Source: a virus. Taken from it: a DNA stretch of 64,000 nucleotides. Positions 2,785-26,084 of this stretch are shown in pieces. The translations under genes were made by a program, and so were the position numbers. The stretch's first letter is position 1, and each line of letters starts with the position of its first letter. The stretch is from IMG/VR virus record IMGVR_UViG_3300028550_004390, positions 2,734-66,733 of that record; one strand, 5' to 3'. The notes beneath the pieces are model-generated. The model was not told the DNA's origin, did not search any database, and saw only the letters and a program-made list of their open reading frames with translations.

Positions 2785-3120
2785 AAACTTATTTAGTAGT
2801 TCTTTTATAATTAGGACATCTTCAGGAGATATTCTTCCTGCTCCTGGAACGTCGAGATACTCATCCAAAGAAGTCATTGTGGAGATGTTGTATTTTTTAT
2901 TCATCGTCCTCATTAACTCAATGGCCTCGTAGTGTAGTTCCATTTCTTTAGAATAAAACTTTTCTCTATATTCACTGTAGTTGGTCAGGATGTCTATAAT
3001 AGTGTCTGTGTCTAGACTAGAGTAGGCTGAGACTGTTTTAGTGTCGAACATATTGGTGACACCTGATTTGCGGACTGATTCGTAAGAATCAAATTCTGAT
3101 TTTGTAATTTCTTTTGTCAT
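2782..3120 (-). CDS. DUF5049-like protein
   Basis: VRKSGVTNMFD motif. Confidence 0.6.
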   Translation of the reverse strand: MTKEITKSEFDSYESVRKSGVTNMFDTKTVSAYSSLDTDTIIDILTNYSEYREKFYSKEMELHYEAIELMRTMNKKYNISTMTSLDEYLDVPGAGRISPEDVLIIKELLNKF

Positions 3121-3152
3121 GTTAGTGGGTTTATTAATGATTGATTGACATA

Positions 3153-3207
3153 GTCAATATACAACTTTTTAAGCAAAGACCACGATATAAACCGTTAAAA
3201 AACGTTA
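3153..3207 (-). promoter_or_regulatory. 55-bp class A promoter cassette, copy 2
   Basis: Plus-strand gtcaatatacaac...accacgat...cgttaaaaaacgtta. Confidence 0.75.
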
Positions 3208-3426
3208 AGAATCCCGAAATTTGTCATCCAATATCTTATCCATTATAGTTAGGATCTCTGATGGTCTTTTATCAGAGTTAAATATGCCTACAAGCTTAGT
3301 TGAAAACTCATCTTCGCACATCAAGGCATCTGCTTTGCCCAGTCTTCTTAGAACTTCTGTAATTCCTCCGGATTGAAACCATTCTCTTAGTTTCCATGTT
3401 GAAACGTATCTTTTGTTAAATCCCAT
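3205..3426 (-). CDS. hypothetical protein (likely start MGFNKRY)
   Basis: ORF 3205..3486; internal ATG at 3426 minimises overlap with the upstream gene. Confidence 0.6.
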   Translation of the reverse strand: MGFNKRYVSTWKLREWFQSGGITEVLRRLGKADALMCEDEFSTKLVGIFNSDKRPSEILTIMDKILDDKFRDS

Positions 3427-4674: not shown

Positions 4675-4897
4675 ATTTAGGCCATAACTTTTTAGGACAA
4701 CTTTCAGATGCCCAGATTGTTTTTGTGCGGATACGACATCCACATTCTTTACATTTTATTTTCTTCGCATCAAAGCTTGGGCAGGAAAAACATATAAGCT
4801 TTCTCCTCAACTCTACTTCAAATGGAACATCTGTGGGATCTTTCGATCTGCGCCACAACGCCTTTATAAATGTGAATACTACTTTAATAGTTTTCAA
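4664..4897 (-). CDS. small Cys-rich zinc-binding protein
   Basis: CxxC...CxxCGC...CP pattern. Confidence 0.65.
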   Translation of the reverse strand: MKTIKVVFTFIKALWRRSKDPTDVPFEVELRRKLICFSCPSFDAKKIKCKECGCRIRTKTIWASESCPKKLWPKYDK

Positions 4898-5266
4898 TTA
4901 CTTCGCTTTCTTAATGAGTGCTAATGCATTTTGTATTTCTGATAGCTTAAGCTGTAGTTCCTTTGTCTTCTCAGCTAGATTGATTACTTCAGCCGAGTAA
5001 TATCCGGTGAAATATACTTCACTCTTCTTTGAATCTACAGCAGCTTTTGCTCTTGCATGCTTTGGGCTATCCGCTTTATAATAGCCTACTGTTCTCATGT
5101 GACGTCGTCCGTCCAGTTCATATACTTCATATGTGCCCTTCTTCTTTGGACTGTAGGTCGAGAAAAAATCTTTTTCCGCTTGGGGAGTTTTATCTTTTGC
5201 AAGGGTGTTAAGAGCGGCTAACTCTTTGTCATATACACCTTCATTCATAATATCTTTTAATTTCAT
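4898..5266 (-). CDS. putative internal virion protein with MKLKDIMNE leader
   Basis: N-terminus shared with other local ORFs. Confidence 0.6.
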   Translation of the reverse strand: MKLKDIMNEGVYDKELAALNTLAKDKTPQAEKDFFSTYSPKKKGTYEVYELDGRRHMRTVGYYKADSPKHARAKAAVDSKKSEVYFTGYYSAEVINLAEKTKELQLKLSEIQNALALIKKAK

Positions 5267-5277
5267 TTTTATAGTCC

Positions 5278-8200
5278 TTATTTCAAACGGCTAAGTGCTT
5301 TACCACACGCTTTGTTGAATTTGTTCATGTGCGGTACAGCTTCTTTATTCTCTCGTTCTTGTATAAGCTCTATGGCCATATCTAAGTGGGCTGTTATACC
5401 TTCATACGTATTGTCGTCATTATCAATAAGCCATTCCTCAAATGCTTCTGAGAGCTTGTATAGCTTTTTCTCACCCATACTAACGGTAGCAAACTTGCCC
5501 AAACCTAATAGGGATTTGATAGGTAGATCTTGAAGTTGAGCTTCATTAACTGACTCTACTATTTTAGCCTTTTTCAATATCTTCATTACATAGTCTTCAG
5601 ACGAATTGCCAGAAGAGGGTGGAGAAAAACTACCATTAGCAGTGACGGACCCACCAACATGTTGACCTCCAAGGAGTAAGTAGTATCGATCGCCAAATCG
5701 AGTAGAATTATTCGAACCCTTAGGGACTTTTACTATTTCCCATTTACCCTTAGCAACTGTCTGTTCCTTTCCTTCATTAACTGATTCACTGAATAGCGTT
5801 TCGCCAGTGTTTGATTCAATCGATATAATAGCATTTGGATATTGTTTTTGTAATTCATTAAACGCTGCTGGAACTGCTGCTGGTGTGTCAACTAATTCTT
5901 GTTTAACAACCATACCGCTATTAATTACTACGATCGTTACAGGATAGCTTCCCTTCTTTGCAGCTTTATGTATCTTACCTCTACTAGCTTCATTTATTTT
6001 GCCTTCTTGGTATAGATCTTTACCTTTATGCTTCTTACCAGTTTTAGTTAGGTTCCTAGCTAGGATTGGGTGAAAGCTTTTTGGTCTTGAGTTAAATTTA
6101 ACATAAGCTACTTGGTTAGCACCACTGCCGCTTACTTTATTAACCAACCCAACTTCCTTTCCTGAGCCAACATAGTCTCCTTTACGAATTTCAGTTAGTT
6201 TGCCTTCTTTAACAACCAAGCTAGCAATTGTATCAATAAACTTTATTGACTTACCAGTCTTAGTGAATTCCACTGTCCATTTCCTTGGGTCCTTTTTGGC
6301 TCCATTGGTACTAACAGTAACTGATTTACCATCATATTTTCCATTTGCTTCACCATTCTTGAACATGAACTTCATGAACCTGTCTCTTTCACTAGTATTT
6401 TGTTTGCCAATGTTAAAATCTTCTTCAACAGATTCTTGGGCATCTTTCCAAGCCTTAGAGTCTGGGTATTCGTCATCGCCTGGCTTTGCAGGAGATTCAC
6501 CCCTAGCCTTTTTCTTTCTGACATTGTCCCAAAGACCTTCAGAAACTGATTCCTTAATTCCTTCTACAACAACCTTGTTTTGTCTGAACATCATGTCCAA
6601 CCAATCTTGAGGCTGCCAACCTGTGTTTCTGCCATAGTTTCCATTGCCTTCCTGATCTACTTTAACTCTATAGCCATCACCATGAGGATTAACAATTTTC
6701 CATTTAGCACCAGTTTTGAATTTTAATATGTCACCCTTTTTAAGAGTTACTTCGGAGATAGATTCCACCTTACCTTTGGATATCTTAGTTCTAAGCTTTT
6801 TAAACTTGTCGTTAATATAGTAGTACCCATATTTACCTGATTTACCACCGCCTAAACCTTTAATATGATTATAAAGAGCTTTATAATGTCCAGACCCTGT
6901 TGCGATAGAATCTATTAGCTTTTTAATTTTAGGATCTTCAGAAAGTATTTTAATAATATCTGCATCAGTTAACTCATCATTAATGTACTTAGCAACTTGA
7001 GCTGTCTGAAAGTCCTGGAGTTCTTTATACTTTATCTTCTTGCCAATGACAGGTAATAGCTTAGCATAGTTGTTGAATCCTTTTTTGAATATCTTACCTA
7101 TGCCTTTGACATCACTTTTTGTTTGTCCCATTAGTTTTGTAAACTTATCATCAGACATTAAAGCAAGTCTTCCTAGAATTCCAGTAGTAGTTATTAGCGC
7201 TGCAACTACCGGTAATGATAGCACCATCTCATTAAGAACCCCTTCAGAAACTGATTCATTATAATCTTCAATGTCAGAATATCTAATTTCGTGTTCTTCA
7301 CCATCTTCATCAACTCCAAAGATAACTTTATCTTGCCACATATCCCAAAAATCCTGCCCTCCTCTACCAGAGTTGGATTCGATATTACTATCGTCACCTT
7401 TCTTAGGATTGTAGATGACATATTGTTTTCCTCTATTGACAGTAATCATACCATCAGCCTTTTTCATGGCTTTCAACAATGAATTCTTGTTGAATTTAGC
7501 TTCGTTAATTGATTTATTCTTTTTCATTATTTTAGCTTCCTTTAAGCTGTATTCCTTTTTAAGCTTTTCCCAAACAGTTTTGTATTTACTTGATAGCTTT
7601 TCACGGCCAAGTACTTTGGATAGCATAATCTTATTGAGAGCAAGTTGCTCATACTCTGGCTCTTTGTCTCTATTGGCTTTTAGTCTAGACTTCTTTTCAA
7701 CATCTTTAATAGCAAGCTTGATCTTGTGCTCATCTTTATTGATGTGTTTGAATTCTGCTTCAGTTAATTTGCTTTCAGTAAGTTTTTTCATTAGCAACGT
7801 TTGAGTCAATGCATTTGCATCTACTGGTCCGTATTTTTTACCATCTTTAGTAAAGGTTACGTAATCTGTTCTTCCACTAGCTTTTTTCTTAACGTCCCAA
7901 CCAAGTTTTCTACCAATTCGCATTGCTTTAGAAGCTCCTAAAGTTGCTACTTCATTAACTGATTCCTTTACGCGATTGCTTGTAAAGGCTCTCTTAACGG
8001 CCTTGTAAAAGTCTTTATGGTATTTCTTAGGAACGTGGTCTGACTTTAAGTAGTCATATAGGTCTTGCTCGTAACTCCAAGATTGATTTGCTGCTTGGTG
8101 TTGAGTTGAACTCCACCTTGCAGCTATATCTAGCATAGTAGCTACATCACTGGGATCCATGAAGTCACCAAAACCTTCTGTTAATTCCACTGAACCTTTC

Positions 8201-10095
8201 GCATACTTACTTGATTTGGAGCCTAATTCTGCTTTATTCCTTTGGTGGTTATGTTTAAGACCACCCTTTTTTAAGAGATAGTTAAATGTCTTTATGGTTA
8301 TGGATGGTCCGACTTGGGATGGAAGCTTCTTAAAGTCTTTTACTTTACCTAAAGCATTACCTTTGAATTTGACGGACAAGTTTCCAAAACCAAATGCAAT
8401 CAAATCATCTAATGTACTGGTCCAAGAACCAATACCCTCGGTAACCGATTCTTTTTTGATTAAGTCTATAGTAGCTAAAGCTAATTTCTTCAATTTATCA
8501 TCCCCATTCTTTTCAGCTTTTACAAGAGAAGATTTAGCAATTTTTAAGCGATCTTCTTTTGATAATACTTCATTAACTGATTCGTCTAGATCTAGATCCC
8601 AACCATACTCTACATATGCAATTGCGTCATCTGGGTCCATATTAAATTTCTTAGCAGCCTTTAAAACAATATCTCTTGTTATTTTGGAGTTTGGTATCTT
8701 AGCGATTATTTTACTAAATCTAGCATCGACACCTACTTCGGGGTTGACCATTGTTTTTTCAAGTATTTCACCTTTGCCTAGATCAAATCTTAAACTAGGA
8801 AACTTAGCAATGTCTACTGCAGTACTACCTCTAAGGGATACTTTCATATTAAATTTCTCGCCGTTTTCATTCTCAACCTCAAATACTTTTTCTGCATTTG
8901 ATTTCTGACCGTAGCCTGTAATAGTGTAGGTTCCTTTCTCAGTTTTGACCGTACTACCAATCTTAAGCTTCTTAGCTGCTTTAGGAGCCATCATAGCTTC
9001 ATTCATCGATTCTCCTATGGTATCTCCTTCTATTCTATTGAACATTATTCCATACACATCACCCTTTCCAAAATCAACGTTAGCCATATCTTGCATCACT
9101 TTAACGACTTTTCCCTTTCTTCCATCCATATATAAAATGTCTCCAACTTTTACTGGTGTGTTAGGATTACCTTCATTAACCGATTCATTAGCCATTTGGG
9201 TTAATGCTTTGTCAATCTGACTTGCTGCCTTTGGATTAGTTTTGTATTGGTCAAGACCTTGTAACCAAGCTTGATATGATTTTTCCTTGTAATTACTTTT
9301 AGGTGTTATTTCTAGGGTTTTACCATTAGATGCTTTAACCATTATCTTATTCGGTCTAGTCTCTTCATGCCAAGATTTAACTGTAAGGCCTTCATTAACT
9401 GATTCGGTTTTTTTTCTGACCTCATCACTAACCCATTTCTTTTCGCTCTTAGACAATTGCTCCCAATCTTTTTTGAATTTCTTTTGGGCTATCTGATCTA
9501 CGTGGCCAGTAAAAAATGATTCTTTAACTGATTCATGGGAGAGCTCTTCGCTATCGTCATTGTGAGGATCTCCAGTCATAAGAGTACCATCAGGCATTTT
9601 ATGAGTTGGTCCAGTCCATTCCTTACCATCTTTTGTATAGTGTTTTTGGCCTGGTCCTTCATTAACTGATTCTTTTAATTTAGATATGCTCCAAAATTTA
9701 TTTTGATAGTCTGCATAACCATCTAGGTATTTCTGTGCATCCTTTAGGGTTTTAAATTTATAGGCTTTAGAAATCTTCCGATCAGATACCCACTTTGGAC
9801 CTTTTGAGTTATCCCTGACTCGCCAACCAATATCTTTTACATATTTAGGACTTCCAGTCTCCTTACTTTGAATAACATAATATTCTGCACCTTCATTAAC
9901 TGATTCTTTAAGGTCAAGTGCCTTGGCAATAGTCTCTCTAAACTCATCTAACTCATCGTCATTAAGCTTTCTAAATTCTGATCTGAGTTTAGCAACATAT
10001 TTGTCTGCTAGGTCCTGACCCTTACCTTCGGTTATTTGATCAACTAGTTGGTTGACTTCTTCACCTATTATTTTTCTTAAATCTGATGGTTTCAT
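5278..10095 (-). CDS. 1605-aa modular polyprotein-like protein with ~20 modules separated by ESVNE-like linkers (putative internal head protein precursor)
   Basis: 8 exact ESVNE plus ESMNE, ESVTE, ESVSE x2, ESISE, ESVEE, ESVKE, KSINE, KINE and KLTE linkers; Lys-rich small domains between them. Confidence 0.8.
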   Translation of the reverse strand: MKPSDLRKIIGEEVNQLVDQITEGKGQDLADKYVAKLRSEFRKLNDDELDEFRETIAKALDLKESVNEGAEYYVIQSKETGSPKYVKDIGWRVRDNSKGPKWVSDRKISKAYKFKTLKDAQKYLDGYADYQNKFWSISKLKESVNEGPGQKHYTKDGKEWTGPTHKMPDGTLMTGDPHNDDSEELSHESVKESFFTGHVDQIAQKKFKKDWEQLSKSEKKWVSDEVRKKTESVNEGLTVKSWHEETRPNKIMVKASNGKTLEITPKSNYKEKSYQAWLQGLDQYKTNPKAASQIDKALTQMANESVNEGNPNTPVKVGDILYMDGRKGKVVKVMQDMANVDFGKGDVYGIMFNRIEGDTIGESMNEAMMAPKAAKKLKIGSTVKTEKGTYTITGYGQKSNAEKVFEVENENGEKFNMKVSLRGSTAVDIAKFPSLRFDLGKGEILEKTMVNPEVGVDARFSKIIAKIPNSKITRDIVLKAAKKFNMDPDDAIAYVEYGWDLDLDESVNEVLSKEDRLKIAKSSLVKAEKNGDDKLKKLALATIDLIKKESVTEGIGSWTSTLDDLIAFGFGNLSVKFKGNALGKVKDFKKLPSQVGPSITIKTFNYLLKKGGLKHNHQRNKAELGSKSSKYAKGSVELTEGFGDFMDPSDVATMLDIAARWSSTQHQAANQSWSYEQDLYDYLKSDHVPKKYHKDFYKAVKRAFTSNRVKESVNEVATLGASKAMRIGRKLGWDVKKKASGRTDYVTFTKDGKKYGPVDANALTQTLLMKKLTESKLTEAEFKHINKDEHKIKLAIKDVEKKSRLKANRDKEPEYEQLALNKIMLSKVLGREKLSSKYKTVWEKLKKEYSLKEAKIMKKNKSINEAKFNKNSLLKAMKKADGMITVNRGKQYVIYNPKKGDDSNIESNSGRGGQDFWDMWQDKVIFGVDEDGEEHEIRYSDIEDYNESVSEGVLNEMVLSLPVVAALITTTGILGRLALMSDDKFTKLMGQTKSDVKGIGKIFKKGFNNYAKLLPVIGKKIKYKELQDFQTAQVAKYINDELTDADIIKILSEDPKIKKLIDSIATGSGHYKALYNHIKGLGGGKSGKYGYYYINDKFKKLRTKISKGKVESISEVTLKKGDILKFKTGAKWKIVNPHGDGYRVKVDQEGNGNYGRNTGWQPQDWLDMMFRQNKVVVEGIKESVSEGLWDNVRKKKARGESPAKPGDDEYPDSKAWKDAQESVEEDFNIGKQNTSERDRFMKFMFKNGEANGKYDGKSVTVSTNGAKKDPRKWTVEFTKTGKSIKFIDTIASLVVKEGKLTEIRKGDYVGSGKEVGLVNKVSGSGANQVAYVKFNSRPKSFHPILARNLTKTGKKHKGKDLYQEGKINEASRGKIHKAAKKGSYPVTIVVINSGMVVKQELVDTPAAVPAAFNELQKQYPNAIISIESNTGETLFSESVNEGKEQTVAKGKWEIVKVPKGSNNSTRFGDRYYLLLGGQHVGGSVTANGSFSPPSSGNSSEDYVMKILKKAKIVESVNEAQLQDLPIKSLLGLGKFATVSMGEKKLYKLSEAFEEWLIDNDDNTYEGITAHLDMAIELIQERENKEAVPHMNKFNKACGKALSRLK
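5541..9906. repeat. dispersed 16-bp repeat CTTCATTAACTGATTC (encodes ESVNE)
   Basis: Exact copies at 5772, 7950, 8568, 9390, 9657, 9891; single-mismatch copies at 5541, 9171; variant CCTTCAGAAACTGATTC at 6536 and 7241. Confidence 0.9.
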
Positions 10096-10096: not shown

Positions 10097-10279
10097 TTAT
10101 ACCCACTTATTATTATATCCTGACCTTTGGTCTTCTAACACATATTCAACATGATCGTTTGTACCACAGTGTGGACAGTTCAATCTATCTAAATCAGCTG
10201 CCTCATTTATCTTCCATTCTTCGACACAACTGCTACACTGATAGATGTATGTGTGTCGTATGAAGACTTTATGTGACAT
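10097..10279 (-). CDS. zinc-ribbon protein
   Basis: CSSC...CPHCG. Confidence 0.7.
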   Translation of the reverse strand: MSHKVFIRHTYIYQCSSCVEEWKINEAADLDRLNCPHCGTNDHVEYVLEDQRSGYNNKWV

Positions 10280-10300: not shown

Positions 10301-10340
10301 TCTCAATATACGAAATTAACTGCAATTATAAAAATATTTC
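10301..10340 (-). promoter_or_regulatory. class B promoter
   Basis: Plus-strand caatatacga...ataaaaatattt. Confidence 0.55.
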
Positions 10341-10590: not shown

Positions 10591-10600
10591 TATAAATATC
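10591..10600 (-). promoter_or_regulatory. putative late promoter GATATTTATA
   Basis: Same 10-mer upstream of several structural/lysis genes. Confidence 0.65.
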
Positions 10601-10940
10601 AAAAACCATTCATTATAGCTTCACTTATTGCATCTTGAATTTCATCTTGTGTGACTTCTAATACCATCATTATGTTTGCTTGAAACCTTGCTACTTCAAC
10701 ACCATCATTAAATACTACCACCGATGGTACTACTACGATCTTGTGTTCTTTCTGTGCAGCTGTGTTGGCAAATATATCGATCCTTAGGGTTTCGCAGTCT
10801 TCCAGGGCTTCTAGGAATTCACATTTAGTTGGCGAGAATGGAGCATTGAACTCAACCACCTCTATTCCTTCACCTTGAATTTCTTGAGTATAAACCATTG
10901 TTGATATGCATATTAATAAAAACGCTAAAATGTATTTCAT
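10599..10940 (-). CDS. secreted thioredoxin-fold protein lacking canonical CxxC
   Basis: Signal peptide; VVEFNAPF...KIVVVPSVVVFNDGVEVARF (cis-Pro thioredoxin pattern). Confidence 0.65.
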   Translation of the reverse strand: MKYILAFLLICISTMVYTQEIQGEGIEVVEFNAPFSPTKCEFLEALEDCETLRIDIFANTAAQKEHKIVVVPSVVVFNDGVEVARFQANIMMVLEVTQDEIQDAISEAIMNGF

Positions 10941-11597: not shown

Positions 11598-12665
11598 TTA
11601 GAATATTACATAGTTGACGCCGATAGAAAAATCGTGCCAAGCTCTGTTCCAGTATTTGTTATATTTTCCTTCTGCAAACACTCCAAGGTGCTTATCAAAT
11701 TTATATCCAAAAATTAAACCTCCTGAGAAGTCTGTCCATTGTCCATCATTGAATTCATGATAGCTAAATTCATTGTTGCCTTGTATATGGTATGGCATTA
11801 GGTTACCCCAAGAATGTAACCAAAAGTCTTTAGTGTAGTAATAGTAATCAAAGCCTACGACTAATGAATGTTGTAGGTTGTTAGCTAGTTTATTCCTTTC
11901 TTGTTCTGTATAGTCAGCTAATACATCAGGTATAACAACACCTTCCCATATCTGGATATTCTCTGCTACTAGAGTTCCTGAAGGGTCATAGTATGTTTCT
12001 CCACCTATTCCGTCAAAGTCTATTGTATAACCTTGTTGCAATGCTAGATCTGTATAGTGTAGATTACCATTTGACAATAGCCAATCTGATAGAGGATCAT
12101 ACCCATAAGGTTCTGATAGTCTTTGTACTGTTCCAATATTTAGGGATAGCTTTTTGCCTATGTTATATCTATACCTCTGTGAAGACTCGAAGTATTCTAT
12201 ATCTGCAAAGCCATCTTGTAAATATTCTACTTTTGCTATCCAATCATCAGCTACATACCTAAGGAAGTGATGCTGATTTAGAAAGTTAGTTCCTTGCTGT
12301 CTTGTGTAGTCACCTTCAAATAAGAATTCAAAGCCTTTTATCTTACCAATCGTTGCAGCATCTGCATATGAATTTTCAGTTCCATCATAAAATACTTTTT
12401 CTCTATTCTCATATCCCAATCTAGCAATCTTTCTTATGCCGAATGTAATTGAATAGTCGAATGGTGTTTCAATGACTTCTGTTTGTAATCCATTTGTAAT
12501 AGAATATACATCTACATCAGATATAGAATTTCCCCCATTTACTGCACCATAGAATGTTGCAAACTTGAAAGTCTTCTTTAGGTTCTTATTGAATGCACTT
12601 TGCTCCTGGCTTATTCCCAAGATAGGGATTAGAAGTAATAGTACTGATAATAAAAGGTTTCTCAT
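11598..12665 (-). CDS. putative outer-membrane beta-barrel protein
   Basis: Sec signal peptide, aromatic-rich alternating strands, C-terminal GVNYVIF (BAM beta-signal-like). Confidence 0.65.
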   Translation of the reverse strand: MRNLLLSVLLLLIPILGISQEQSAFNKNLKKTFKFATFYGAVNGGNSISDVDVYSITNGLQTEVIETPFDYSITFGIRKIARLGYENREKVFYDGTENSYADAATIGKIKGFEFLFEGDYTRQQGTNFLNQHHFLRYVADDWIAKVEYLQDGFADIEYFESSQRYRYNIGKKLSLNIGTVQRLSEPYGYDPLSDWLLSNGNLHYTDLALQQGYTIDFDGIGGETYYDPSGTLVAENIQIWEGVVIPDVLADYTEQERNKLANNLQHSLVVGFDYYYYTKDFWLHSWGNLMPYHIQGNNEFSYHEFNDGQWTDFSGGLIFGYKFDKHLGVFAEGKYNKYWNRAWHDFSIGVNYVIF

Positions 12666-13567
12666 TTCTTTATATCCATTTTTTTGTTTTTTATGTATTC
12701 AACCATAATCTTTATCTTAGGCTTATACCAATCCGGAGTCCTGTCTATTATACCAAGGTATTCCGACTTCTCTTCGTCCATTCTAACAGTTATCTGGAGA
12801 TCTGTCAAGTTTAAAAGGATTTGGCTAGATGTTGATAGAACATCCTTATCGGTTGAGTTTTGCACTTTGTCTTTGTCTCTATAAGGATTGTCCCTCATAT
12901 TCACTGGATAGTAGCCGCTTAGGCCATCTAATATATCTAGTGGGTTTTTAGCTTTAGTTAAAACTGCGTGAGCAATATTCCATCTTGATTCTGATGATTT
13001 CCTATTTGCCCCGGATGTATATCCTGAATCTTTGTATTCGTAACCATGATTAGTCCTAACATGGTTTAAGCTTCTATCCATTTTATTTATCGTTGGAGAA
13101 TGCTTAGAGGTCATTTCTATAGAGACAGAGTTTTTAGGGTCTGCTATGAATGTATGCCCCTTGACACCAATATCTAGTTTATCCTTTCCAAAAAATTTAA
13201 TTAGGGATTCAATGGACTTAGCGATTGTTGGATAGCTTAAAGCTTTTCTAATTTTGAGACCATCCTCAGAGACTTTACCTTTGTGCTTAATGATCTTCTT
13301 TTCTTTCTCATCAGCATTTACCATCAATGCTGAATTTAGAATGCCTATTCCTGCAGAGTTCATACCTTCAGACCAATCTGTTTCGTCGTCCAATATGTAT
13401 ACCAATTCAATATCACCTATCAATTCTCTTACAACATTTACCTTAGCATCGTAAGCTCGGTCACGATTCTTTGCTAATAATACTTTATTACCTAGTACTG
13501 AATGTGTTATTATGCATTCATTTAGGGTGGCTTTAGGTTTTATTAATATGTTTTTGAGCTTAATCAT
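12662..13567 (-). CDS. Ntn-hydrolase (peptidase C45/C59-like) with N-terminal leader
   Basis: LNE-CIIT...LLAKNRDR...WSEGMNSAGIGI...VRTNH...SSESRW; Cys18 is the candidate nucleophile. Confidence 0.7.
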   Translation of the reverse strand: MIKLKNILIKPKATLNECIITHSVLGNKVLLAKNRDRAYDAKVNVVRELIGDIELVYILDDETDWSEGMNSAGIGILNSALMVNADEKEKKIIKHKGKVSEDGLKIRKALSYPTIAKSIESLIKFFGKDKLDIGVKGHTFIADPKNSVSIEMTSKHSPTINKMDRSLNHVRTNHGYEYKDSGYTSGANRKSSESRWNIAHAVLTKAKNPLDILDGLSGYYPVNMRDNPYRDKDKVQNSTDKDVLSTSSQILLNLTDLQITVRMDEEKSEYLGIIDRTPDWYKPKIKIMVEYIKNKKMDIKK

Positions 13568-13866
13568 TTTATGATTCTTTTTATGGCTTGTACTGTGAAC
13601 GGATACGCCTTACCCTTTCCCTTTTCATCCCATATAACAATTTCTGATTTGTTGGTCTTTATTTTTAGTGCTGCTTTTGCCATAGTTAAAGCATTCCTAT
13701 AATCAAACACCAAAGGGTTGCCATCAACACTTGTCGTATGCTTTTGAATCATACCATCTCTATGGATAAAATAAGGGTCATCTCCACTTCTTTGGGATAT
13801 CTTTATTTGGAAATCATAGTAGATAGAATTCTTAGCTTCAGTTAATATGTCTTTAAGCTTGATCAT
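13564..13866 (-). CDS. putative internal virion protein with MIKLKDILTE leader
   Basis: Shared leader; ATGA overlaps. Confidence 0.6.
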   Translation of the reverse strand: MIKLKDILTEAKNSIYYDFQIKISQRSGDDPYFIHRDGMIQKHTTSVDGNPLVFDYRNALTMAKAALKIKTNKSEIVIWDEKGKGKAYPFTVQAIKRIIK

Positions 13867-14396
13867 TTACCATACATTCTTTTTATTACGGTTCCACCTT
13901 TCTTAAGCTTTCTTTCATAATAACCATCTTCAAGGTGTTTAATAAACTTAGGACCAACCATCTTTTCAATTTTCTTTTTATCCAAGACTACGGGTGCACC
14001 TTTAGATGCCATAATTTGATCCATTTTTTTACTGCCTTCTAGCCTATATCCGGACTTAACCATGGCGACAGCTTTTTTAACTACTGCACTTTTTGCTGCA
14101 CTTTGACCGTCAGTTGCTAATAGCTTAACCACCTTACCTCTTGTGAATATAAATGCATCTGGCATTGGGTCTTTATCTACATCTATTAACATTACTATTT
14201 CATAACTACTTTGTAGTTCACTTGCAGAGAATGCTGATAGTTGTAGACCTTCAGCTGAATAAACTGCACTATACATCTTGAATAGTTTGTCCATTATCCT
14301 TTCGTCAATAGATGAAAGCTGTTGGGATATCCACTTTTTCTTAGGGTGGTCGTCTAAGTTATAGTCTTCTTTTAATATGTCTATTAGTTTAATCAT
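13863..14396 (-). CDS. putative internal virion protein with MIKLIDILKE leader
   Basis: Likely start ATG 14396 (TAATG overlap with the upstream stop). Confidence 0.6.
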   Translation of the reverse strand: MIKLIDILKEDYNLDDHPKKKWISQQLSSIDERIMDKLFKMYSAVYSAEGLQLSAFSASELQSSYEIVMLIDVDKDPMPDAFIFTRGKVVKLLATDGQSAAKSAVVKKAVAMVKSGYRLEGSKKMDQIMASKGAPVVLDKKKIEKMVGPKFIKHLEDGYYERKLKKGGTVIKRMYGK

Positions 14397-15286
14397 TACC
14401 ATGCCTTGCAAGACCAATATCCTGCTGATGTTTTATCTTTCTTCTGGTCACACTTATGTCTTGCTCTAAATGATTTTCTTGCATCAGGATTATCCTTTCT
14501 GATCCTTTGGGTTTCTTGTCCTGCTTTCTTAGCGGCTTTACCACCTTGACCAAAGTGAACAACTTTTATATTTCCAGATGATGGATCTTTTACATAGACC
14601 TTAAACTTCTTTTGGTCACCTTGCATAGGTTTATTAAGCTTAACCTTTCTGCCTTTATACTCTGCCTCTTGAAATACAACAGGTTCTGAATGCTCTACTA
14701 GTTCTATTCTTAAAGAGCTATTTTTATATATTGATTTTTCCATGCTTTCCTTTATTAAGCTTGTTTTAGATTTAACTTCAGGATGTCTTTTTAACATTTT
14801 ATCTACTGCTGCTATATTTTTAGAACTGTCGTCCATAAAATACACTGTGTCATATCCTTTTTTAATTTGTCGTTCAATCCAATCTGCTTTAACTTTTGGA
14901 TCGGCACTACCTACCGGTACAACATATGCATCTATACCAACAGATCTTAAGAAACTAGAAACAGGAGCTCCTAAAGATCTTGCAGTTAATATAGTCACCT
15001 TCCTTGCACCCTTAGAAGATCTTCTGGCTTTATCTAATTGCTTTCTTAATAGATCTGCATTCTTTTTAATTAGCTTGGGATTCTGTAATGGTCGATCGAA
15101 ATCTTTGAAATCGAACTCTTCTTCTGGAGCAGCCTTGTATACTGCAAACTGAGCAGGGTCTAGCTTCTTAACTACCTTACCATTTTTTGTGACATATATC
15201 CATGCATCAGATTTTGCAATAGTGTCGTCGAAATCGAATACACTTAATACTTTGCCTTCCTCTAATATGCCTTTGAATTTAATCAT
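14396..15286 (-). CDS. HAD-family phosphatase-like domain fused to a basic C-terminal phage domain; MIKFKGILEE leader
   Basis: VFDFDDT (motif I), ILTAR (II), K, FMDD (IV); second module AEYKGRKVKLNKP...FRARHKC...YWSCKAW follows FQE. Confidence 0.75.
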   Translation of the reverse strand: MIKFKGILEEGKVLSVFDFDDTIAKSDAWIYVTKNGKVVKKLDPAQFAVYKAAPEEEFDFKDFDRPLQNPKLIKKNADLLRKQLDKARRSSKGARKVTILTARSLGAPVSSFLRSVGIDAYVVPVGSADPKVKADWIERQIKKGYDTVYFMDDSSKNIAAVDKMLKRHPEVKSKTSLIKESMEKSIYKNSSLRIELVEHSEPVVFQEAEYKGRKVKLNKPMQGDQKKFKVYVKDPSSGNIKVVHFGQGGKAAKKAGQETQRIRKDNPDARKSFRARHKCDQKKDKTSAGYWSCKAW

Positions 15287-15342
15287 AATGATGTGTCAGG
15301 GAACCAGTTGTCATTTTCTAATATGTTTTCTGGATCCTTCAT
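15283..15342 (-). CDS. 19-aa mini-ORF (MKDPENILENDNWFPDTSL); not in ORF track
   Basis: Fills the intergenic gap exactly, with ATGA start/stop overlaps at both ends. Confidence 0.5.
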   Translation of the reverse strand: MKDPENILENDNWFPDTSL

Positions 15343-17813
15343 TGCTTTAATATCCTTTTACTTATTCTAATCTCATCAGCTACAATAGTCATAACGTATA
15401 TCCCAGTAGGATAATCACCTAAGCTTATCTCCTTTGAAGTTTGAGATACTATTTTTTTACCATTAATATCATAAACTTCGATCTGTACGTTTAGTCTTGT
15501 ATTTACTATAAATATATCATTAGAAGGGTTTGGGTACACTACGATCATTTTACTATCAATATCATCTACACCTGCCGGCCATCCTAATTCGCAATAATCA
15601 TACATTGATTCACATGAAGCATCCCATTCTGTAGTACAACAATAGTCGTCTACATCTATTACCCAAGCAAAACATCCATCGTTTAGATAGTATGGTAAGC
15701 CTTCACCTTGGTAGCATCCTGCATCATATAGACAGCTGCCATCTTCTGTATTAACAAACTCATCGTAGTTAGCTGCTGATAGATCTGTGCATCCCATCAT
15801 AATTGTTTCGCAGAAGTTCAATGGCTCATAACATGCAGTAGAGTCATAGTTAAATGCTGTGGGGTTAGTACATCCTGAAACATAACAACATGTATTATCT
15901 AGGGAGTTTGCTAAAGGATTGAAGTTGAATGCTGCAGTATCTGTACAACCATATTCAAATGGTATACATGAATCATTGTCTACATTCGCTAGTGGGTCAT
16001 AATTAAACATTGAAGGGTAAGTACATCCAAATACCGGGAGAATACATGAATCATCATCAGTATTAACTGCTTCGTCATAGTTAAGGGCTGTAGCATCAGT
16101 ACAACCATAAATAAATGGTATGCACTCGTCATTAGTATTAGCATTAGAATCATAATTAAATGCCAAATCATTCATACATCCATAGATGAATGGAGTGCAA
16201 TTAGTTGCTACGTTTGCTGACGGATCATAATTAAACTGAGTGTCATCCATGCAACCAAATGCAGCCAATATATCACAAGAGCTATCATCGTAGTCAGCAT
16301 CATATCCTTGGGTGTAGAATTCTAAGTAACCTGCTTGAGTGCATCCAGGTAAATAGTAACATTCACCACTGTCTGTATTTGCACCATCTTCATAATTTAC
16401 AGCAAGATTGTCCATGCATCCTTCAACATAAGACTCACAGTAATTTAAACAAGTAGGTGTTCCTTCATATACAAATGGAAATTGCTTAAGGAGGTCTGTC
16501 CATGGGTTAGTTCCACTTTGGAGAACGATACCATTAGGTCCTTCCAATCTAAAACCACATTGGGCTGCAGTTGTTGCTGAATTGCCACTTGTAAAGAAAT
16601 AAACGTTAACCTCTTCATTAGAATTAAGATCTAATCCAAAAGATTCTTCATAACCATCGTCTGGTCCCATTTGGAAAGGACCGTAAATCTGATCTCCTTG
16701 AGTTATTCCTAGCCAACTACCGAACCAGCCATCTGCTCCACCGTCTGTAATGATAAGATCGTATTGGCATGTTGGATGAACGTCCATAGTATTTGCTAGG
16801 ACATCATAATTAAACATTGTAGCATCTATACAACCTAACTGTATTGGAGTGGTGCATGTGTAATCATCTACGATAGCAAGTGGATTATACTCGACATATC
16901 CAGGAGTCGTGCATCCTTCAAGTTGGTATGGTGTGCACTGAGGAACTATATATGGTCCTGATGACACTGTATCGAATTGTTGTTGTCCACCTATAGCAAA
17001 TATACTATCGCCACATGCAGTAAATACATTGAAATACCCATCTACTCCACCCCAACATGATCCGCAAAGACCATCACCAAAAGTATCATAAATAATTGTT
17101 TCAATGGTATCACCTTCAGCAACACAAAAGTAAGCTGATTGTGGAACGTCTGGGATGGTGAATCCTGTAGACGATGCGACTATATTGCTATTAACTATTA
17201 ATTCCCAAGATGTTTCATTAGGGTAGTTGTCAGGAGTAGTAATAATAATAATGCCAGTTTCCCCCATATCGCAAGGGACTGGAAGAAAGTTACATGATGA
17301 GGGTGCATTTGCCCATGGGTTGAAGTTTAAAGCTTCAGACTCCATACATCCATAAACTAAGCAGCTATAATCACAAGACCCATCGTCATTGGTAGCATTC
17401 TCATCATAATTACATGCTGCAATGTCTGCACATCCATATAGTGGTGGAGGGCAAGCTAGAAGATCGAAATATACAGTTGCTGTAGGACCTGCAAAGTCAT
17501 ATACAAACGTATTCAATCCACATGAATTAGATAGCCCGAAGAAGCCTTCACCATATGCACAGCAAATACCATCTCCAAACTCGTCATATATAACAAGGTT
17601 GTATTGTCCAGCATCGAGATTAACCATAGTCTCGTAATATGAATTGCCATCATATGTAGGAGAGGTGGCTACAATGTTAGTGTCTTGGTATATTTCCCAA
17701 GTAGTCTCACTGCCATAATTGTCTGTTTGAACTACTACATTTACCCAGCTGTCCTGTGCTACTGGGATTATTGGTAATAACGCCAGCAGTAGAAATATTA
17801 ATAAGTTTCTCAT
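15339..17813 (-). CDS. secreted Cys/Asp-rich repeat protein with T9SS C-terminal sorting domain
   Basis: Signal peptide; many GCxDxxAxNYDxxAxxDDxSC repeats; two D.FGDG.C domains; CTD IVVYPNPSND...GIYVMTIV...KRILKQ. Confidence 0.85.
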   Translation of the reverse strand: MRNLLIFLLLALLPIIPVAQDSWVNVVVQTDNYGSETTWEIYQDTNIVATSPTYDGNSYYETMVNLDAGQYNLVIYDEFGDGICCAYGEGFFGLSNSCGLNTFVYDFAGPTATVYFDLLACPPPLYGCADIAACNYDENATNDDGSCDYSCLVYGCMESEALNFNPWANAPSSCNFLPVPCDMGETGIIIITTPDNYPNETSWELIVNSNIVASSTGFTIPDVPQSAYFCVAEGDTIETIIYDTFGDGLCGSCWGGVDGYFNVFTACGDSIFAIGGQQQFDTVSSGPYIVPQCTPYQLEGCTTPGYVEYNPLAIVDDYTCTTPIQLGCIDATMFNYDVLANTMDVHPTCQYDLIITDGGADGWFGSWLGITQGDQIYGPFQMGPDDGYEESFGLDLNSNEEVNVYFFTSGNSATTAAQCGFRLEGPNGIVLQSGTNPWTDLLKQFPFVYEGTPTCLNYCESYVEGCMDNLAVNYEDGANTDSGECYYLPGCTQAGYLEFYTQGYDADYDDSSCDILAAFGCMDDTQFNYDPSANVATNCTPFIYGCMNDLAFNYDSNANTNDECIPFIYGCTDATALNYDEAVNTDDDSCILPVFGCTYPSMFNYDPLANVDNDSCIPFEYGCTDTAAFNFNPLANSLDNTCCYVSGCTNPTAFNYDSTACYEPLNFCETIMMGCTDLSAANYDEFVNTEDGSCLYDAGCYQGEGLPYYLNDGCFAWVIDVDDYCCTTEWDASCESMYDYCELGWPAGVDDIDSKMIVVYPNPSNDIFIVNTRLNVQIEVYDINGKKIVSQTSKEISLGDYPTGIYVMTIVADEIRISKRILKQ

Positions 17814-19161: not shown

Positions 19162-20145
19162 TTACTTTTTTGATAGTTCGTAAAGCCAATGATTCATCAT
19201 TTCATCTAGCATTTCTTTGAATGTATACTTTGGTTCCCAGCCTAGATCATTTTTTATTTTACTGCAATCACCCTTAAGGAATTCAAGTTCTTCAGATCTA
19301 AAAAACTTTTGGTCAGCTTCTACATGATCTCTCCAATCCATTCCTAGTTCCCTGAATACGTATGAGCATAGATCTCTAACTGTATGAGATTCTCCAGTCG
19401 AACAAACATAGTCATCTGGTGTATCGGATTGTAGCATCAACCACATTGCATACACATAATCTTTGGCGTGGCCCCAATCTCTGCTAGCATTTAAGTTGCC
19501 AAGTCTTAGCTCATTTGAAAGACCCAATTTAATCTTAACTGCTTCTTTAACAACTTTGTTTGTTACAAAATTGCTGCCTCTTCTTGGTGATTCATGATTG
19601 AATAGGATGCCATTCCATATCTTCATACCATAAGCATTTCTATAATTTCTGCAGATATTATATGCATAGACCTTTGCACAACCATAAGGAGAGACTGGGC
19701 TCATTGGTGTTGTTTCTCTTTGATAGCCATCAGCATCTACACTATTACCAAACATTTCTGAACTACTTGCTTGGTAAAATCTTGCTTCTGGAGCCATCAG
19801 CCTCATAGCTTCTAAAAGGTTTAGGGTCCCTGTAGCTATTGAATGTGTAGTGTAGATTGGCATACTAAAACTAATTTGAACATGGCTTTGTGCTGCAAGG
19901 TTGTAAATTTCATCTGGCTTGCATAACTGTAGAACTCTGCATAATGAAGCCATGTCTAGCATGTCTGCATATTCTAAGTTAATTCTCTTATATGTTTCGT
20001 CAGGAATTCTTGCAGTTTGGTTTTCAGCTACGGAATTTCTTTTTAAGATTCCCCAGACTTCATAGCCTTTTTCTAATAATAATTCAGCTAGATATGACCC
20101 ATCCTGGCCATTGATTCCAGTTATCAGTGCTACCTTAGTTTTCAT
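19162..20145 (-). CDS. gmd: GDP-mannose 4,6-dehydratase
   Basis: ALITGINGQDGSYLAELLLEKGYEV, YNLAAQSHV, FYQASSSEMFG, PYGCAK, GILFNHESPRRG, RDWGHAKDYV. Confidence 0.95.
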   Translation of the reverse strand: MKTKVALITGINGQDGSYLAELLLEKGYEVWGILKRNSVAENQTARIPDETYKRINLEYADMLDMASLCRVLQLCKPDEIYNLAAQSHVQISFSMPIYTTHSIATGTLNLLEAMRLMAPEARFYQASSSEMFGNSVDADGYQRETTPMSPVSPYGCAKVYAYNICRNYRNAYGMKIWNGILFNHESPRRGSNFVTNKVVKEAVKIKLGLSNELRLGNLNASRDWGHAKDYVYAMWLMLQSDTPDDYVCSTGESHTVRDLCSYVFRELGMDWRDHVEADQKFFRSEELEFLKGDCSKIKNDLGWEPKYTFKEMLDEMMNHWLYELSKK

Positions 20146-23238: not shown

Positions 23239-23248
23239 TTGGAAACTT

Positions 23249-26010: not shown

Positions 26011-26030
26011 TTGTTTTTTCCTTTAGTATT

Positions 26031-26080
26031 TAATAGACATGTAAATATAAGGTATAACTAGCGAAATAAAAAATTATTCC
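26031..26080 (-). promoter_or_regulatory. class B promoter, near-duplicate of 45652..45700
   Basis: taatagacatgtaaatataag..ataact....aaataaaaaattatt in both places. Confidence 0.65.
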
Positions 26081-26084
26081 CTGG

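Follow-up and report, generated by a model that had tools for sequence, protein, structure and literature searches.

The window analysed here is a 64,000-nucleotide stretch of IMG/VR virus record IMGVR_UViG_3300028550_004390. It contains on its minus strand a single open reading frame (ORF) of 1605 amino acids (P0001, 5278..10095) that is punctuated by a short recurrent linker. Splitting the protein at these linkers yields 21 modules of 39-164 aa, numbered M01 to M21. The features of the locus are as follows, with arrows marking boundaries within a sequence.

5278..10095, minus: 1605-aa cassette polyprotein ORF, P0001 (ORF and motif count)
10027..10095, minus: N-terminal leader MKPSDLRKIIGE↓EVNQLVDQITE↓G, aa 1-23; candidate propeptide for capsid targeting, containing [IL]-x-E twice
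9892..9906, minus: linker ESVNE, aa 64-68 (M01/M02); end of an exact M02 deletion in a metagenome contig
9658..9672, minus: linker ESVNE, aa 142-146 (M02/M03); other end of the M02 deletion (234 nt, 78 aa; 20 nt shared)
9520..9534, minus: linker ESVKE, aa 188-192 (M03/M04); motif count
9391..9405, minus: linker ESVNE, aa 231-235 (M04/M05); one end of joint 6749→9390
9172..9186, minus: linker ESVNE, aa 304-308 (M05/M06); motif count
8998..9012, minus: linker ESMNE, aa 362-366 (M06/M07); motif count
8569..8583, minus: linker ESVNE, aa 505-509 (M07/M08); end of an exact M08 deletion
8437..8451, minus: linker ESVTE, aa 549-553 (M08/M09); other end of the M08 deletion (132 nt, 44 aa; runs X4, X5)
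8176..8190, minus: linker VELTE (weak), aa 636-640 (M09/M10); break point of homologs, SVELTE↓G
7951..7965, minus: linker ESVNE, aa 711-715 (M10/M11); end of three joints
7759..7788, minus: double linker KKLTE-SKLTE, aa 770-779 (M11/M12); homolog comparison and joints
7501..7515, minus: linker KSINE, aa 861-865 (M12/M13); motif count and homologs
7243..7257, minus: linker ESVSE, aa 947-951 (M13/M14); end of the 705-nt M14+M15 deletion, 4/4 runs
6751..6765, minus: linker ESISE, aa 1111-1115 (M14/M15); motif count and joints
6538..6552, minus: linker ESVSE, aa 1182-1186 (M15/M16); other end of the 705-nt deletion (14-17 nt shared)
6421..6435, minus: linker ESVEE, aa 1221-1225 (M16/M17); motif count
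6190..6204, minus: linker GKLTE, aa 1298-1302 (M17/M18); homolog comparison
5989..6003, minus: linker GKINE, aa 1365-1369 (M18/M19); joints at 5988 and 5994 have one end here
5773..5787, minus: linker ESVNE, aa 1437-1441 (M19/M20); motif count
5542..5556, minus: linker ESVNE, aa 1514-1518 (M20/M21); one end of joint 5553→7950
6751..7242, minus: module M14, 164 aa (aa 952-1115); hydrophobic stretch MVLSLPVVAALITTTGILGRLAL close to the beginning of the module
6421..6537, minus: module M16, GLWDNVRKKKARG..., aa 1187-1225; matches phrog_11180
5773..5988, minus: module M19, aa 1370-1441; most widespread cassette
10097..10279, minus: 60-aa ORF with two Cys pairs, ending 2 nt before the polyprotein start
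4898..5266, minus: 122-aa ORF with leader MKLKDIMNE↓G, directly downstream of the polyprotein
12662..15286, minus: four consecutive ORFs with a leader of about 10 aa, MIK(L/F)KxILxE (N-terminal comparison)
10591..10600, minus: late-type promoter-like motif GATATTTATA, about 500 nt ahead of the polyprotein gene
10305..10313, minus: second-class promoter-like motif TCGTATATT, in front of the 60-aa ORF

Linkers and modules of the polyprotein

An earlier note, made from the sequence of this DNA, had described the ORF as punctuated by one linker family, and that description holds. Every variant it named is present (ESMNE, ESVTE, two copies of ESVSE, ESISE, ESVEE, ESVKE, KSINE, GKINE and KLTE), and ESVNE occurs far more often than in shuffled sequence. 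Compared with 2000 shuffles of the polyprotein, we observed 8 copies of ESVNE (shuffle mean 0.002, maximum 1), 15 of ES[VIML]xE (mean 0.14, maximum 2), 16 of [EK]S[VIML]xE (mean 0.42, maximum 4) and 41 of the bare [VIL]xE (mean 22.4, maximum 35). The residue directly following the 16 strong linkers is Gly in 8-9 cases, Ala in 3 and Val in 3, with Ser and Asp also present. The note had further proposed some 20 unrelated, Lys-rich segments. We find 21 modules with no module-module match at E<=1e-3 and a Lys content of 14.6 % of residues, and both the His-rich module (aa 147-192) and the GLWDNVRKKKARG module (aa 1187-1225) lie where it had placed them. The four SH3/KOW-like modules that it named are putative, as structure prediction gave no confident model for them. 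The polyprotein has a pI of 9.36, with 14 of the 21 modules net positive and seven acidic or neutral. Separate translation of the modules was rejected because no start codons are found at the module boundaries.

Structure prediction gave no sign that ESVNE belongs to a repeating fold, in either the model of M19 or the low-confidence model of residues 1-320. M19 is predicted by AF2 to form a compact alpha-beta-beta-alpha-beta-beta domain (pLDDT 81) with a linker tail at pLDDT 49. All five linkers within residues 1-320 fall in segments with pLDDT <50, a weak result because the mean pLDDT of this model is itself 49.

Searches with Pfam, PHROGs, Foldseek (for M19) and ESM Atlas (for M14) found no recognisable function for any module. 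On the whole ORF, Pfam returned nothing at the cut-off (best E 0.15), no domain at E<=0.1 and no peptidase domain, and the sole PHROGs match was phrog_11180, on M16. The M19 model had no Foldseek match in the PDB at E<=0.001; its best matches, the RuBisCO small subunit (0.036), AcrIF9 (0.056) and Dmd (0.18), were not taken as evidence. The ESM Atlas search with M14 gave no usable match, and PHROGs on 20 neighbouring ORFs mostly gave none.

Shuffled relatives, leaders and the head genes of the phage

Among 161 metagenomic relatives, each module of the polyprotein was found again in 1-103, and its position varies; modules are kept as discrete units at 50-97 % identity across phages. Modules in a different order and modules as stand-alone genes, for which the note had suggested looking, were both seen, the former in shuffled homologs and the latter as genes for M19. 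This module has the widest spread of all cassettes, being present in 103 of the 161 family proteins. M16 occurs in 68 T4-like cyanophage records, and in relative G010 an ORF of the head module ends with it. In another relative, G001, a single contig encodes a 683-aa ESVNE mini-polyprotein together with an S77 protease and Gp23. P0005, P0006 and P0010 are encoded on contigs of 130-140 kb. The family also has a cultured member, gp079 of Flavobacterium phage immuto (vB_FspM_immuto), whose leader is MKKLIRIVE↓A and which contains the sites NESVNE↓G and KESLNE↓D. Neither P0001 nor P0082, a capsid-targeting sequence (CTS) plus M19 protein, had a tblastn match among 50,697 cultured-phage records; the search for related loci returned one locus with the whole ORF and two with M01. 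The alignment of residues 1290-1605 was misaligned by the shuffled module order and was left out.

The family-wide junction logo, built from 154 distinct contexts, has [VLIM]-x-E directly before the module start in 130. Position P1 is Glu in 139 and P1' is Ala in 80 and Gly in 42. Autocleavage at the linker Asn was rejected because P2 is Asn in just 70 of the 154 contexts, with Thr, Asp, Ser and Val seen elsewhere.

The leader of the polyprotein, MKPSDLRKIIGE↓E..ITE↓G, is conserved where the long homologs begin, and an 86-aa ORF in this phage's head module starts with a similar sequence. Its length and motif would fit a CTS propeptide (10-19 residues with an L/I-x-E end), and the leaders of relatives appear close to MKTYQEFIAE, which PMC8442874 gives as the T4 CTS. 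Family members begin with MKKVKLFESFIAE↓A, MKYFKSHSEFLNE↓A, MKHIKILEQFITE↓A and similar sequences, and an N-terminus of leader type is found in 64 of 101 distinct family N-termini compared to 21 of 106 other phage ORFs (p 2e-10). The stand-alone genes P0152-P0155 (88-90 aa) consist of a 13-residue CTS-like leader and M19 and nothing else, and the last Glu of the leader adjoins the same first residue of M19 that follows the linker in the polyprotein. The MIK(L/F)KxILxE leader of the ORFs at 12662..15286 is shared by a 95-aa ORF in the head module on contig G006, described below; these four ORFs are candidates for further head-targeted proteins.

The source phage is a distant T4-like flavobacterial myovirus of marine origin. 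Its Pfam matches include a phage tail-sheath domain, gp32, RecA and PolB, and the tblastn matches of the tail sheath are T4-type phages. The closest cultured relative by sheath is immuto (45 % identity), whose head module is of the T4 type (gp20, protease, gp23). A profile search did not find PF03420 or PF07068 on the window's own contig, where the head genes are missing because it is a fragment (39 % complete by CheckV). The premise of a T4-like phage is nevertheless borne out by IMG/VR contig G006, which matches window positions 59072-64000 at 99.33 % over 4929 nt and carries both a gp21-type protease (Peptidase_S77, PF03420, E 6.7e-33) and a Gp23 capsid protein (E 1.3e-79). This head-gene contig could come from a sister strain.

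The G006 protease, encoded at 23528-24160, keeps the T4 gp21 columns GELxHP and SSRGxGS. T4 gp21 is described as cleaving after L/I-X-E (PMC9026906), and maturation of T4 gp23 as removing 65 N-terminal residues (PMC9958956). E65↓A66 of T4 gp23 aligns with QLISE↓ANN of the G006 capsid protein, so that L-I-S-E↓A stands at the exact T4 gp23 maturation cut. The G006 protease and scaffold contain the sites MINE↓S, AVNE↓S, KINE↓V and NLNE↓S.

These head genes bear on the possibility that the polyprotein is a sacrificial accessory of the core or scaffold, targeted to the prohead and cut at its linkers, with the fragments cleared and no cargo delivered. The numerous cut sites and the many fragments below 10 kDa would suit such a role. 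The core proteins of T4 are reported to be broken down into small peptides, which then exit the prohead (PMC9958956), and in SPN3US extra propeptide sites are thought to aid clearance (PMC5694885). However, the phage already has a separate, acidic gp22-like scaffold ORF (G006 26310-27233, between the protease and capsid genes), while the polyprotein is basic (pI 9.36) and encoded away from the protease and capsid genes. Its modules are predicted to fold, as modelled for M19, are conserved as discrete units, and in their majority are basic, a trait shared with the T4 internal proteins, which PMC8442874 calls "highly basic". Hypervariable, shuffled content also suits conflict-type cargo more than structural filler. 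We therefore consider a purely sacrificial role improbable.

The polyprotein gene sits among non-structural genes, distant from the head module, and its promoter context is mixed. Six copies of the late-type motif GATATTTATA occur in the window, all of them on the gene strand. Apart from the copy near the polyprotein gene, they stand before the tube gene, a lysozyme-like gene and the ORFs starting at 59096, 50300 and 47733; the shorter core of the motif, ATATTTATA, also lies in front of the sheath gene. No minus-strand terminator-like site was found between the copy about 500 nt upstream and the polyprotein gene. The polyprotein may be expressed early, in addition to or in place of late, because the nearest motif, TCGTATATT at 10313, is of a class that also precedes PolB, UvdE and other replication-type genes. 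The 60-aa ORF and the polyprotein are probably co-transcribed. The T4 late promoter TATAAATA was dropped as a timing marker because it is not enriched on the gene strand (5 copies versus 11 on the opposite strand). Five RNA runs contain just 0.05-0.09 of the words.

Both the location among non-structural genes and the replication-type motif would fit a cytoplasmic polyprotein processed by another host or phage protease, or having no link to the head at all, with the likeness to gp21 sites being coincidental. Several observations speak against this. The leaders resemble those of ORFs in the phage's own head module, M16 lies inside the G010 head module, a late-type motif is found upstream, and the ORF has no peptidase domain detectable by Pfam. 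The genes for T4 internal proteins likewise lie outside the head module. We regard a cytoplasmic polyprotein as highly improbable.

Linker DNA and contig joints

The linkers are conserved as DNA as well as protein. The 15-nt linker DNA in the polyprotein gene is GAATCAGTTAATGAA. The encoding is identical in six of the eight ESVNE linkers, TCA is the Ser codon of 12 of the 16 linkers (p 1e-4), and GTT the Val codon of 13 of 13 (p 1e-4). We took joints from contigs of four marine metagenomes (four studies). Both ends lie <=12 nt from a linker in 10 of the 13 listed in-gene joints (chance 0.03 each). Among them are joints that remove exactly M02, M08 or M14+M15, whose two sides have 14-20 nt in common; the 705-nt deletion of M14+M15 is present in 4/4 runs. 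Joint 4896→5275, in one metagenome contig, removes the downstream 122-aa ORF. Parts of the polyprotein gene that lacked contig cover in single runs were given no interpretation. Conservation of the linker at the DNA level, at breakpoints of whole-module deletion and replacement, is new here and had gone unnoticed in the note.

Such conservation, through recombination or common descent, could alone account for the persistence of the linker with no protease involved. The polyprotein would then be a full-length, uncleaved string of beads, packaged or cytoplasmic and resembling a polyvalent protein, in which the linker serves mainly as a DNA recombination joint. The near-invariant linker codons, which recur at two other loci, and the population breakpoints on linkers with their shared nucleotides are in line with this, as is the replication-type promoter motif directly upstream; polyvalent multi-domain phage proteins are presented as an established class in PMC5512222. 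Yet a pure joint needs neither the Glu at P1 nor a hydrophobic P3 and a small P1', and the junction pattern is held in differently encoded variants (GKVNE, PLNE, KLTE and KTNE). In addition, the stand-alone genes have the same boundary after CTS-like leaders, and the linker motif agrees with the maturation site in the phage's own capsid protein. An uncleaved array is in our view unlikely.

Proposed mechanism and comparison with known systems

The reading that we favor, with a probability of about 0.6, is that the polyprotein consists of head-targeted internal proteins that are cut apart by the prohead protease, with linkers that double as recombination joints. The leader MKPSDLRKIIGE↓E...ITE↓G would direct the polyprotein to the prohead scaffolding core, like the T4 capsid-targeting sequence. 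Once activated, the gp21-type prohead protease would cleave every (E)-S-[V/I/L]-[N/T]-E↓[G/A] linker behind its final Glu. The mini-proteins freed in this way, about 21 in number, small (4-18 kDa) and for the most part basic, would remain with the DNA and enter the host alongside it. The linker DNA GAATCAGTTAATGAA would provide in-frame microhomology at which whole modules are deleted, replaced or reordered, and related phages would therefore carry differing cargo sets. Head targeting, packaging, cleavage, retention, ejection and the function of the modules, which may be anti-defence or DNA-condensing, are the steps that we infer. The interpretation given in the note is thus partly supported, all of its premises that lent themselves to a computational check having held.

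Counting against the head-cargo reading are about 20 further copies of [VIL]-x-E inside modules, a number that matches chance expectation; the choice of site would therefore have to rest on exposure or on an extended motif. Val as the commonest P3 residue and the seven acidic or neutral modules also speak against it. Fragments of 4-5 kDa might also exit the head, by analogy with the T4 scaffold peptides described in PMC9958956.

More tentatively, and at somewhat less than even odds, the dual-purpose linker (protease cut site and 15-nt in-frame recombination joint) would underlie cassette shuffling of capsid-delivered mini-proteins across a marine T4-like lineage. A shared module pool would also feed the stand-alone genes with a CTS leader found in cyanophages of the T4-like group and in further marine T4-like phages.

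[quoted passage not shown] As here, a short leader ending in [I/L]-x-E precedes a small, mostly basic and highly variable protein, and diverse content stands behind a conserved targeting and processing signal (as outlined in PMC3012670 and PMC9026906). In T4, however, each internal protein has its own gene and CTS and a single cut, whereas here about 21 units are fused with about 21 predicted internal cuts. P3 is mostly Val here, which lies outside the published T4 L/I-X-E motif, and the use of the linker as a recombination breakpoint further sets this system apart from the T4 internal proteins. No homology to IPI, IPII, IPIII or Alt was found (Pfam best E 0.15; PHROGs only phrog_11180).

Polyvalent proteins also join many unrelated domains in one polypeptide thought to be delivered with the DNA, and the account by Iyer et al. 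2017 (PMC5512222) includes a proposed proteolytic release of units and combinatorially variable architectures. In the same way, the polyprotein holds 21 mutually unrelated modules that are shuffled among the 161 relatives. The polyvalent proteins of PMC5512222 carry enzymatic domains (ART, ParB, MPTase and others) and a predicted embedded peptidase, while here the modules are tiny and a uniform conserved linker matches a trans-acting prohead protease. Pfam found neither the hallmark domains (ART, ParB-like, MuF, MPTase) nor an embedded peptidase at E<=0.1.

Inner-body and ejection proteins of phiKZ, 201phi2-1 and SPN3US are described as head-internal proteins cut after Glu by a gp21-related prohead protease, at S/A/G-x-E or A-x-E and in some cases at multiple sites (PMC5694885). 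They have one to few sites, mostly for propeptide loss, and neither a shuffled cassette array nor a uniform linker. The PeSL promoter-terminator cassettes of T4-like myoviruses place a short repeat between variable units and are proposed as drivers of recombination (PMC4122927); PeSLs are intergenic regulatory elements in that report, unlike the 15-nt in-frame coding linker within one ORF. Polyproteins of eukaryotic RNA viruses share with this protein one ORF with conserved cleavage sites between distinct products, and the products here would be split by a conserved motif matching a protease of the same virus. Unlike those viruses, this one is a tailed phage with a dsDNA genome. Its protease gene lies outside the ORF, the T4 enzyme acts within the prohead, and the products form no fixed replication set but are accessory and can be exchanged for one another. 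Our literature searches returned nothing on ESVNE in phages, no description of such an array in work on polyproteins, prohead proteases and ejection proteins, and no paper on this phage lineage.

If the proposed reading is true, a polyprotein strategy would operate in a tailed dsDNA phage, with one gene delivering about 20 small proteins together with the DNA and recombination at the cleavage-directing motif rewiring the content of the polyprotein. The T4 internal-protein paradigm would reach uncultured marine phages, and a leader combined with [V/I/L]-[N/T]-E↓[G/A] would offer a sequence rule for predicting injected phage proteins in metagenomes. The family would also provide many mini-domains that are candidates for counter-defence or DNA binding, and a design from nature for packing several cargoes into T4-type capsids.

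The polyprotein and its phage

The minus-strand gene at the centre of this analysis is a single ORF.

5278-10095, minus strand: polyprotein, 1605 aa

Sixteen strong linkers and five weaker junctions (VELTE, KLTE twice, GKLTE and GKINE) split it into 21 modules of 39-164 aa, named M01 to M21 from the N-terminus. Counted against 2000 shuffles of the polyprotein, ESVNE occurs 8 times (shuffle mean 0.002, maximum 1), ES[VIML]xE 15 times (mean 0.14, maximum 2) and [EK]S[VIML]xE 16 times (mean 0.42, maximum 4). None of the 21 modules resembles another at E<=1e-3, Lys makes up 14.6 % of residues (pI 9.36) and 14 of the 21 modules carry net positive charge. The description in the earlier note, one ORF of about 20 linker-joined, mutually unrelated and Lys-rich segments, is thus upheld. 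Pfam assigned the polyprotein no family (best E 0.15), and the sole PHROGs match was phrog_11180, a function-unknown family, on M16.

Structure prediction from a 14-sequence alignment suggests that M19 is a compact alpha-beta-beta-alpha-beta-beta domain (mean pLDDT 81.4) with a less confident last block, which holds the linker (mean pLDDT 49); Foldseek of this model against PDB returned nothing at E<=0.001. The model of residues 1-320 (19 sequences) has a mean pLDDT of 49 and a pTM of 0.21 and thus indicates no single fold. All five linkers in it lie in segments predicted below pLDDT 50, a weak sign given that more than half of the model does.

The window covers most of an IMG/VR virus record of 66.7 kb (CheckV 39 %), with nearly all genes on the minus strand and Pfam matches to tail-sheath domains, PolB, gp32, RecA, DnaB, class II RNR and GroEL. 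The closest cultured relative of the sheath by tblastn is Flavobacterium phage vB_FspM_immuto (45 % identity), and the remaining matches are T4-type phages. A type 9 secretion (T9SS) domain in one phage protein points to a Bacteroidota host.

15339-17813, minus strand: 824-aa protein with PF18962 type 9 secretion C-terminal sorting domain (E 3.8e-11) and signal-peptide-like N-terminus

Nearby ORFs at 11598-12665 and 10599-10940 also have signal-like hydrophobic N-terminal segments, and the phage seems to supply proteins for export through the host T9SS. Elsewhere on the minus strand, a large block at 19162-29616 encodes at least three glycosyltransferases (GT2, GT4) together with two epimerase/dehydratase-like genes for nucleotide sugars; it is a candidate for DNA, virion or host-surface glycosylation. 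At 31688-33638 there is a GroEL-type chaperonin (PF00118, E 7.6e-71) with a 92-aa ORF directly upstream. Although the phage has a complete family-B polymerase, a 332-aa ORF (50324-51322) partially matches family-A DNA polymerases (E 2.3e-12); its neighbours look structural, and a late-type promoter motif precedes it.

Two promoter-like motif classes, GATATTTATA and TCGTATATT, stand upstream of genes. All six window copies of GATATTTATA are on the gene strand, before the tube gene, a lysozyme-like gene and ORFs starting at 59096, 50300 and 47733; before the sheath gene stands its shorter core, ATATTTATA. With nine copies of (G)ATATTTATA on the gene strand versus none on the opposite one, 25-45 nt before sheath, tube, lysozyme-like and other ORF starts, this motif is a candidate late promoter. 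It differs from the T4 late motif TATAAATA, for which no enrichment was found.

63284, 61126, 60273, 59133, 50320, 47810, 18460, 10600, minus strand: (G)ATATTTATA

All seven copies of TCGTATATT are on the gene strand, in front of genes that include PolB and UvdE. Both classes lie upstream of the polyprotein: GATATTTATA at 10600 (about 500 nt upstream) and TCGTATATT at 10313, before a 60-aa ORF whose end is 2 nt ahead of the polyprotein start. No terminator-like site was found on the minus strand from 11000 to 4600. At least five genes, PolB and UvdE among them, are preceded by a conserved sequence of about 60 nt, CGTTTTTTAACG..ATCGTAGT..TTTAC..GTCGTATATTAGTAGTATAC, which looks like a mobile regulatory cassette and in concept resembles PeSLs, known from T4-like phages.

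2693-2790, 3120-3210, 31161-31235, 36129-36210, 46629-46695, minus strand: element of about 60 nt upstream of ORF starts

Cassette shuffling and natural breakpoints at the linker

A search of 5.8 billion proteins yielded 26 long homologs (883-1457 aa) and 213 shorter ones, 120 of the latter listed. Module-by-module BLAST placed 17 of the 21 modules in long homologs, again bordered by xSVNE, GKVNE, PLNE or KLTE, and in varying position and order. Across 161 collected relatives all 21 modules recur, each in 1-103 proteins, at widely spread relative positions (0.02 to 0.89 for M19). Module order differs among related phages, a point the earlier note had proposed checking. The 842-aa, polyprotein-like gp079 of immuto (L004 19007-21532) has a leader MKKLIRIVE↓A (↓, presumed cut), sites NESVNE↓G and KESLNE↓D, and a module in common with 56 family proteins (best E 7e-16). 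A cassette, (K/A)LDPVGKED.DI(D/N)NDG..DK.DKYL..RR, occurs in both gp079 and gp163 of T4-like cyanophage Syn1 (L108 2042-2947), so the module pool spans phages of cyanobacteria and flavobacteria.

Parts of the polyprotein gene are present in 24 public runs from 15 studies, all marine/seawater metagenomes; runs ranking below the likely source run hold 0.76, 0.73, 0.58, 0.54 and 0.50 of the gene. We aligned contigs, not reads, of four runs from four studies to the gene and found linker-to-linker joints, several of them longer than the following.

Skips in the polyprotein gene in natural contigs
705 nt: removes M14+M15 (235 aa); 4 of 4 runs; 14-17 nt common at joint
132 nt: removes M08 (44 aa); 2 runs; 1 nt common (1-nt cut ambiguity only)
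234 nt: removes M02 (78 aa); 1 run; 20 nt common at joint

In 10 of the 13 in-gene joints listed (four further joints lie beyond these), each end falls no more than 12 nt from a linker (chance 0.032 per joint, binomial 3e-13). Logan contigs are built on 31-mers; with a word size above the 14-20 nt common at the joints, these would not be simple repeat collapses. Joints for which the intervening sequence is marked as not known may be replacements instead of deletions. The 122-aa gene downstream of the polyprotein is variably present too, since one contig (run X5) joins 4896 to 5275 and thereby omits it.

The linker is conserved as DNA, a layer beyond what the earlier note observed. Six of the eight ESVNE linkers are encoded as GAATCAGTTAATGAA; Ser is TCA in 12 of 16 strong linkers versus 27 % gene-wide (p 1e-4) and never AGY, and Val is GTT in 13 of 13 versus 50 % (p 1e-4). 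Nucleotide conservation is limited to the 15-nt linker and the next G. The 15-mer has no copy elsewhere in the window, and two other loci use the same linker codons. The main rival explanation is an array that stays uncleaved and keeps its linker for recombination alone. It accounts for this codon identity but not for the conserved P1, P3 and P1' pattern of junctions that are spelled differently, as tabulated from the residues before projected module starts.

Junction residues in 154 distinct contexts
P4: S 56/154
P3 with P1 = E: V/I/L/M 130/154
P2: N 70/154, T 39/154
P1: E 139/154
P1': A 80/154, G 42/154

Even across variant spellings, the junction thus follows a conserved motif at the protein level, (E)-S-[V/L/I]-[N/T]-E↓[A/G].

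Protease, matching capsid site and leaders

The protease and capsid genes are absent from the window's own contig. The overlapping IMG/VR contig G006, 99.33 % identical to window 59072-64000 over 4929 nt, extends upstream of the sheath gene and encodes Peptidase_S77 (E 6.7e-33) and Gp23 (E 1.3e-79), which bears out the premise of a T4-type phage with a gp21-type protease. Aligned with T4 gp21, this protease keeps the GELxHP and SSRGxGS columns, which we take to be the sites of the catalytic His and Ser. The head module of immuto is likewise T4-type (gp20, 'prohead core protein serine protease', Gp23).

PMC9026906 places T4 gp21 cleavage after the Glu of L/I-X-E and gives T4 internal proteins capsid-targeting propeptides of 10-19 residues; according to PMC9958956, gp23 maturation removes 65 N-terminal residues. 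MAFFT aligned T4 gp23 FLTE65↓AEIGG with QLISE↓ANNTA of the G006 capsid protein and QIVSE↓ANVTG of immuto, so protease and matching capsid-protein site occur in the same phage. G006 has further sites in its protease (MINE↓S at residue 21, AVNE↓S at 174) and acidic scaffold (KINE↓V, NLNE↓S, SMTE↓G), and P1' at the 16 strong polyprotein linkers is mostly G, A or V.

Long homologs have in common the N-terminus MK(P/Q)SDL(R/K)KII(G/T)EEV..., and many shorter relatives start MKYFKSHSEFLNE↓A, MKKVKLFESFIAE↓A, MKHIKILEQFITE↓A or MKHIKPLNE↓K. The latter N-termini are close to the T4 capsid-targeting sequence, given as MKTYQEFIAE in a passage of PMC8442874. Leader-type N-termini make up 64 of 101 distinct family N-termini versus 21 of 106 other phage ORFs (Fisher p 2e-10). 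Modules also exist as stand-alone genes, as the earlier note had suggested looking for: M19 forms complete 88-90-aa genes behind a 13-residue leader (P0152-P0155). In a sequence alignment, the last Glu of this leader adjoins the same Ala that opens M19 after the polyprotein linker, and this match of linker to leader boundary is likewise left unexplained by the uncleaved array.

Leaders recur in other ORFs of the phage. An 86-aa ORF between protease and scaffold in the same phage starts MNKERLKNIIREEISSILLGE↓A, similar to the polyprotein leader, and the 122-aa ORF directly downstream of the polyprotein starts MKLKDIMNE↓G. A second type, MIK(L/F)KxILxE, begins a 95-aa ORF of the head module as well as four window ORFs in a row. 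Members of this family may also be targeted to the head, and one of them has a weak polynucleotide-kinase-like match (phrog_415).

12662-15286, minus strand; 47133-47366, minus strand; G006 25301-25588: MIK(L/F)KxILxE family, near-identical first 10 residues

Other phages tie the family to head genes. In one of them, a T4-like marine phage, a single 100.9-kb contig (G001) carries Gp23, a 683-aa ESVNE mini-polyprotein and the S77 protease; the last is fused to a long acidic scaffold-like region with many x-[VMI]-N-E↓S sites in one 726-aa ORF (L016 1813-3993). In another (G010), a 504-aa ORF between protease and scaffold ends with M16. This module occurs in 68 T4-like cyanophage records, the only such group among cultured phages, and in Sf-CH1b follows a leader MRDYKEFKELCE↓A.

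A proposed fused precursor of internal proteins

Among known systems, the polyprotein comes closest to T4 internal proteins and Alt, polyvalent proteins (PMC5512222), the inner-body and ejection proteins that phiKZ-like phages cut at several sites (PMC5694885) and, for the DNA layer, PeSL shuffling cassettes (PMC4122927). In none of them are some 20 cassettes fused through a uniform protease-site linker that also mediates their shuffling. In the open-access article texts searched, we found no description of such an array.

Besides the uncleaved array, a sacrificial core protein and a cytoplasmic polyprotein are rival explanations. On the most economical reading, the polyprotein joins a T4-type repertoire of internal proteins in a single precursor. 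Its leader would direct this precursor to the prohead core, where a gp21-type protease would cut it at every linker, and the basic fragments would remain with the DNA and then enter the host. The linker would double as a recombination joint, through which cassettes would be exchanged with a pool common to marine T4-like phages.
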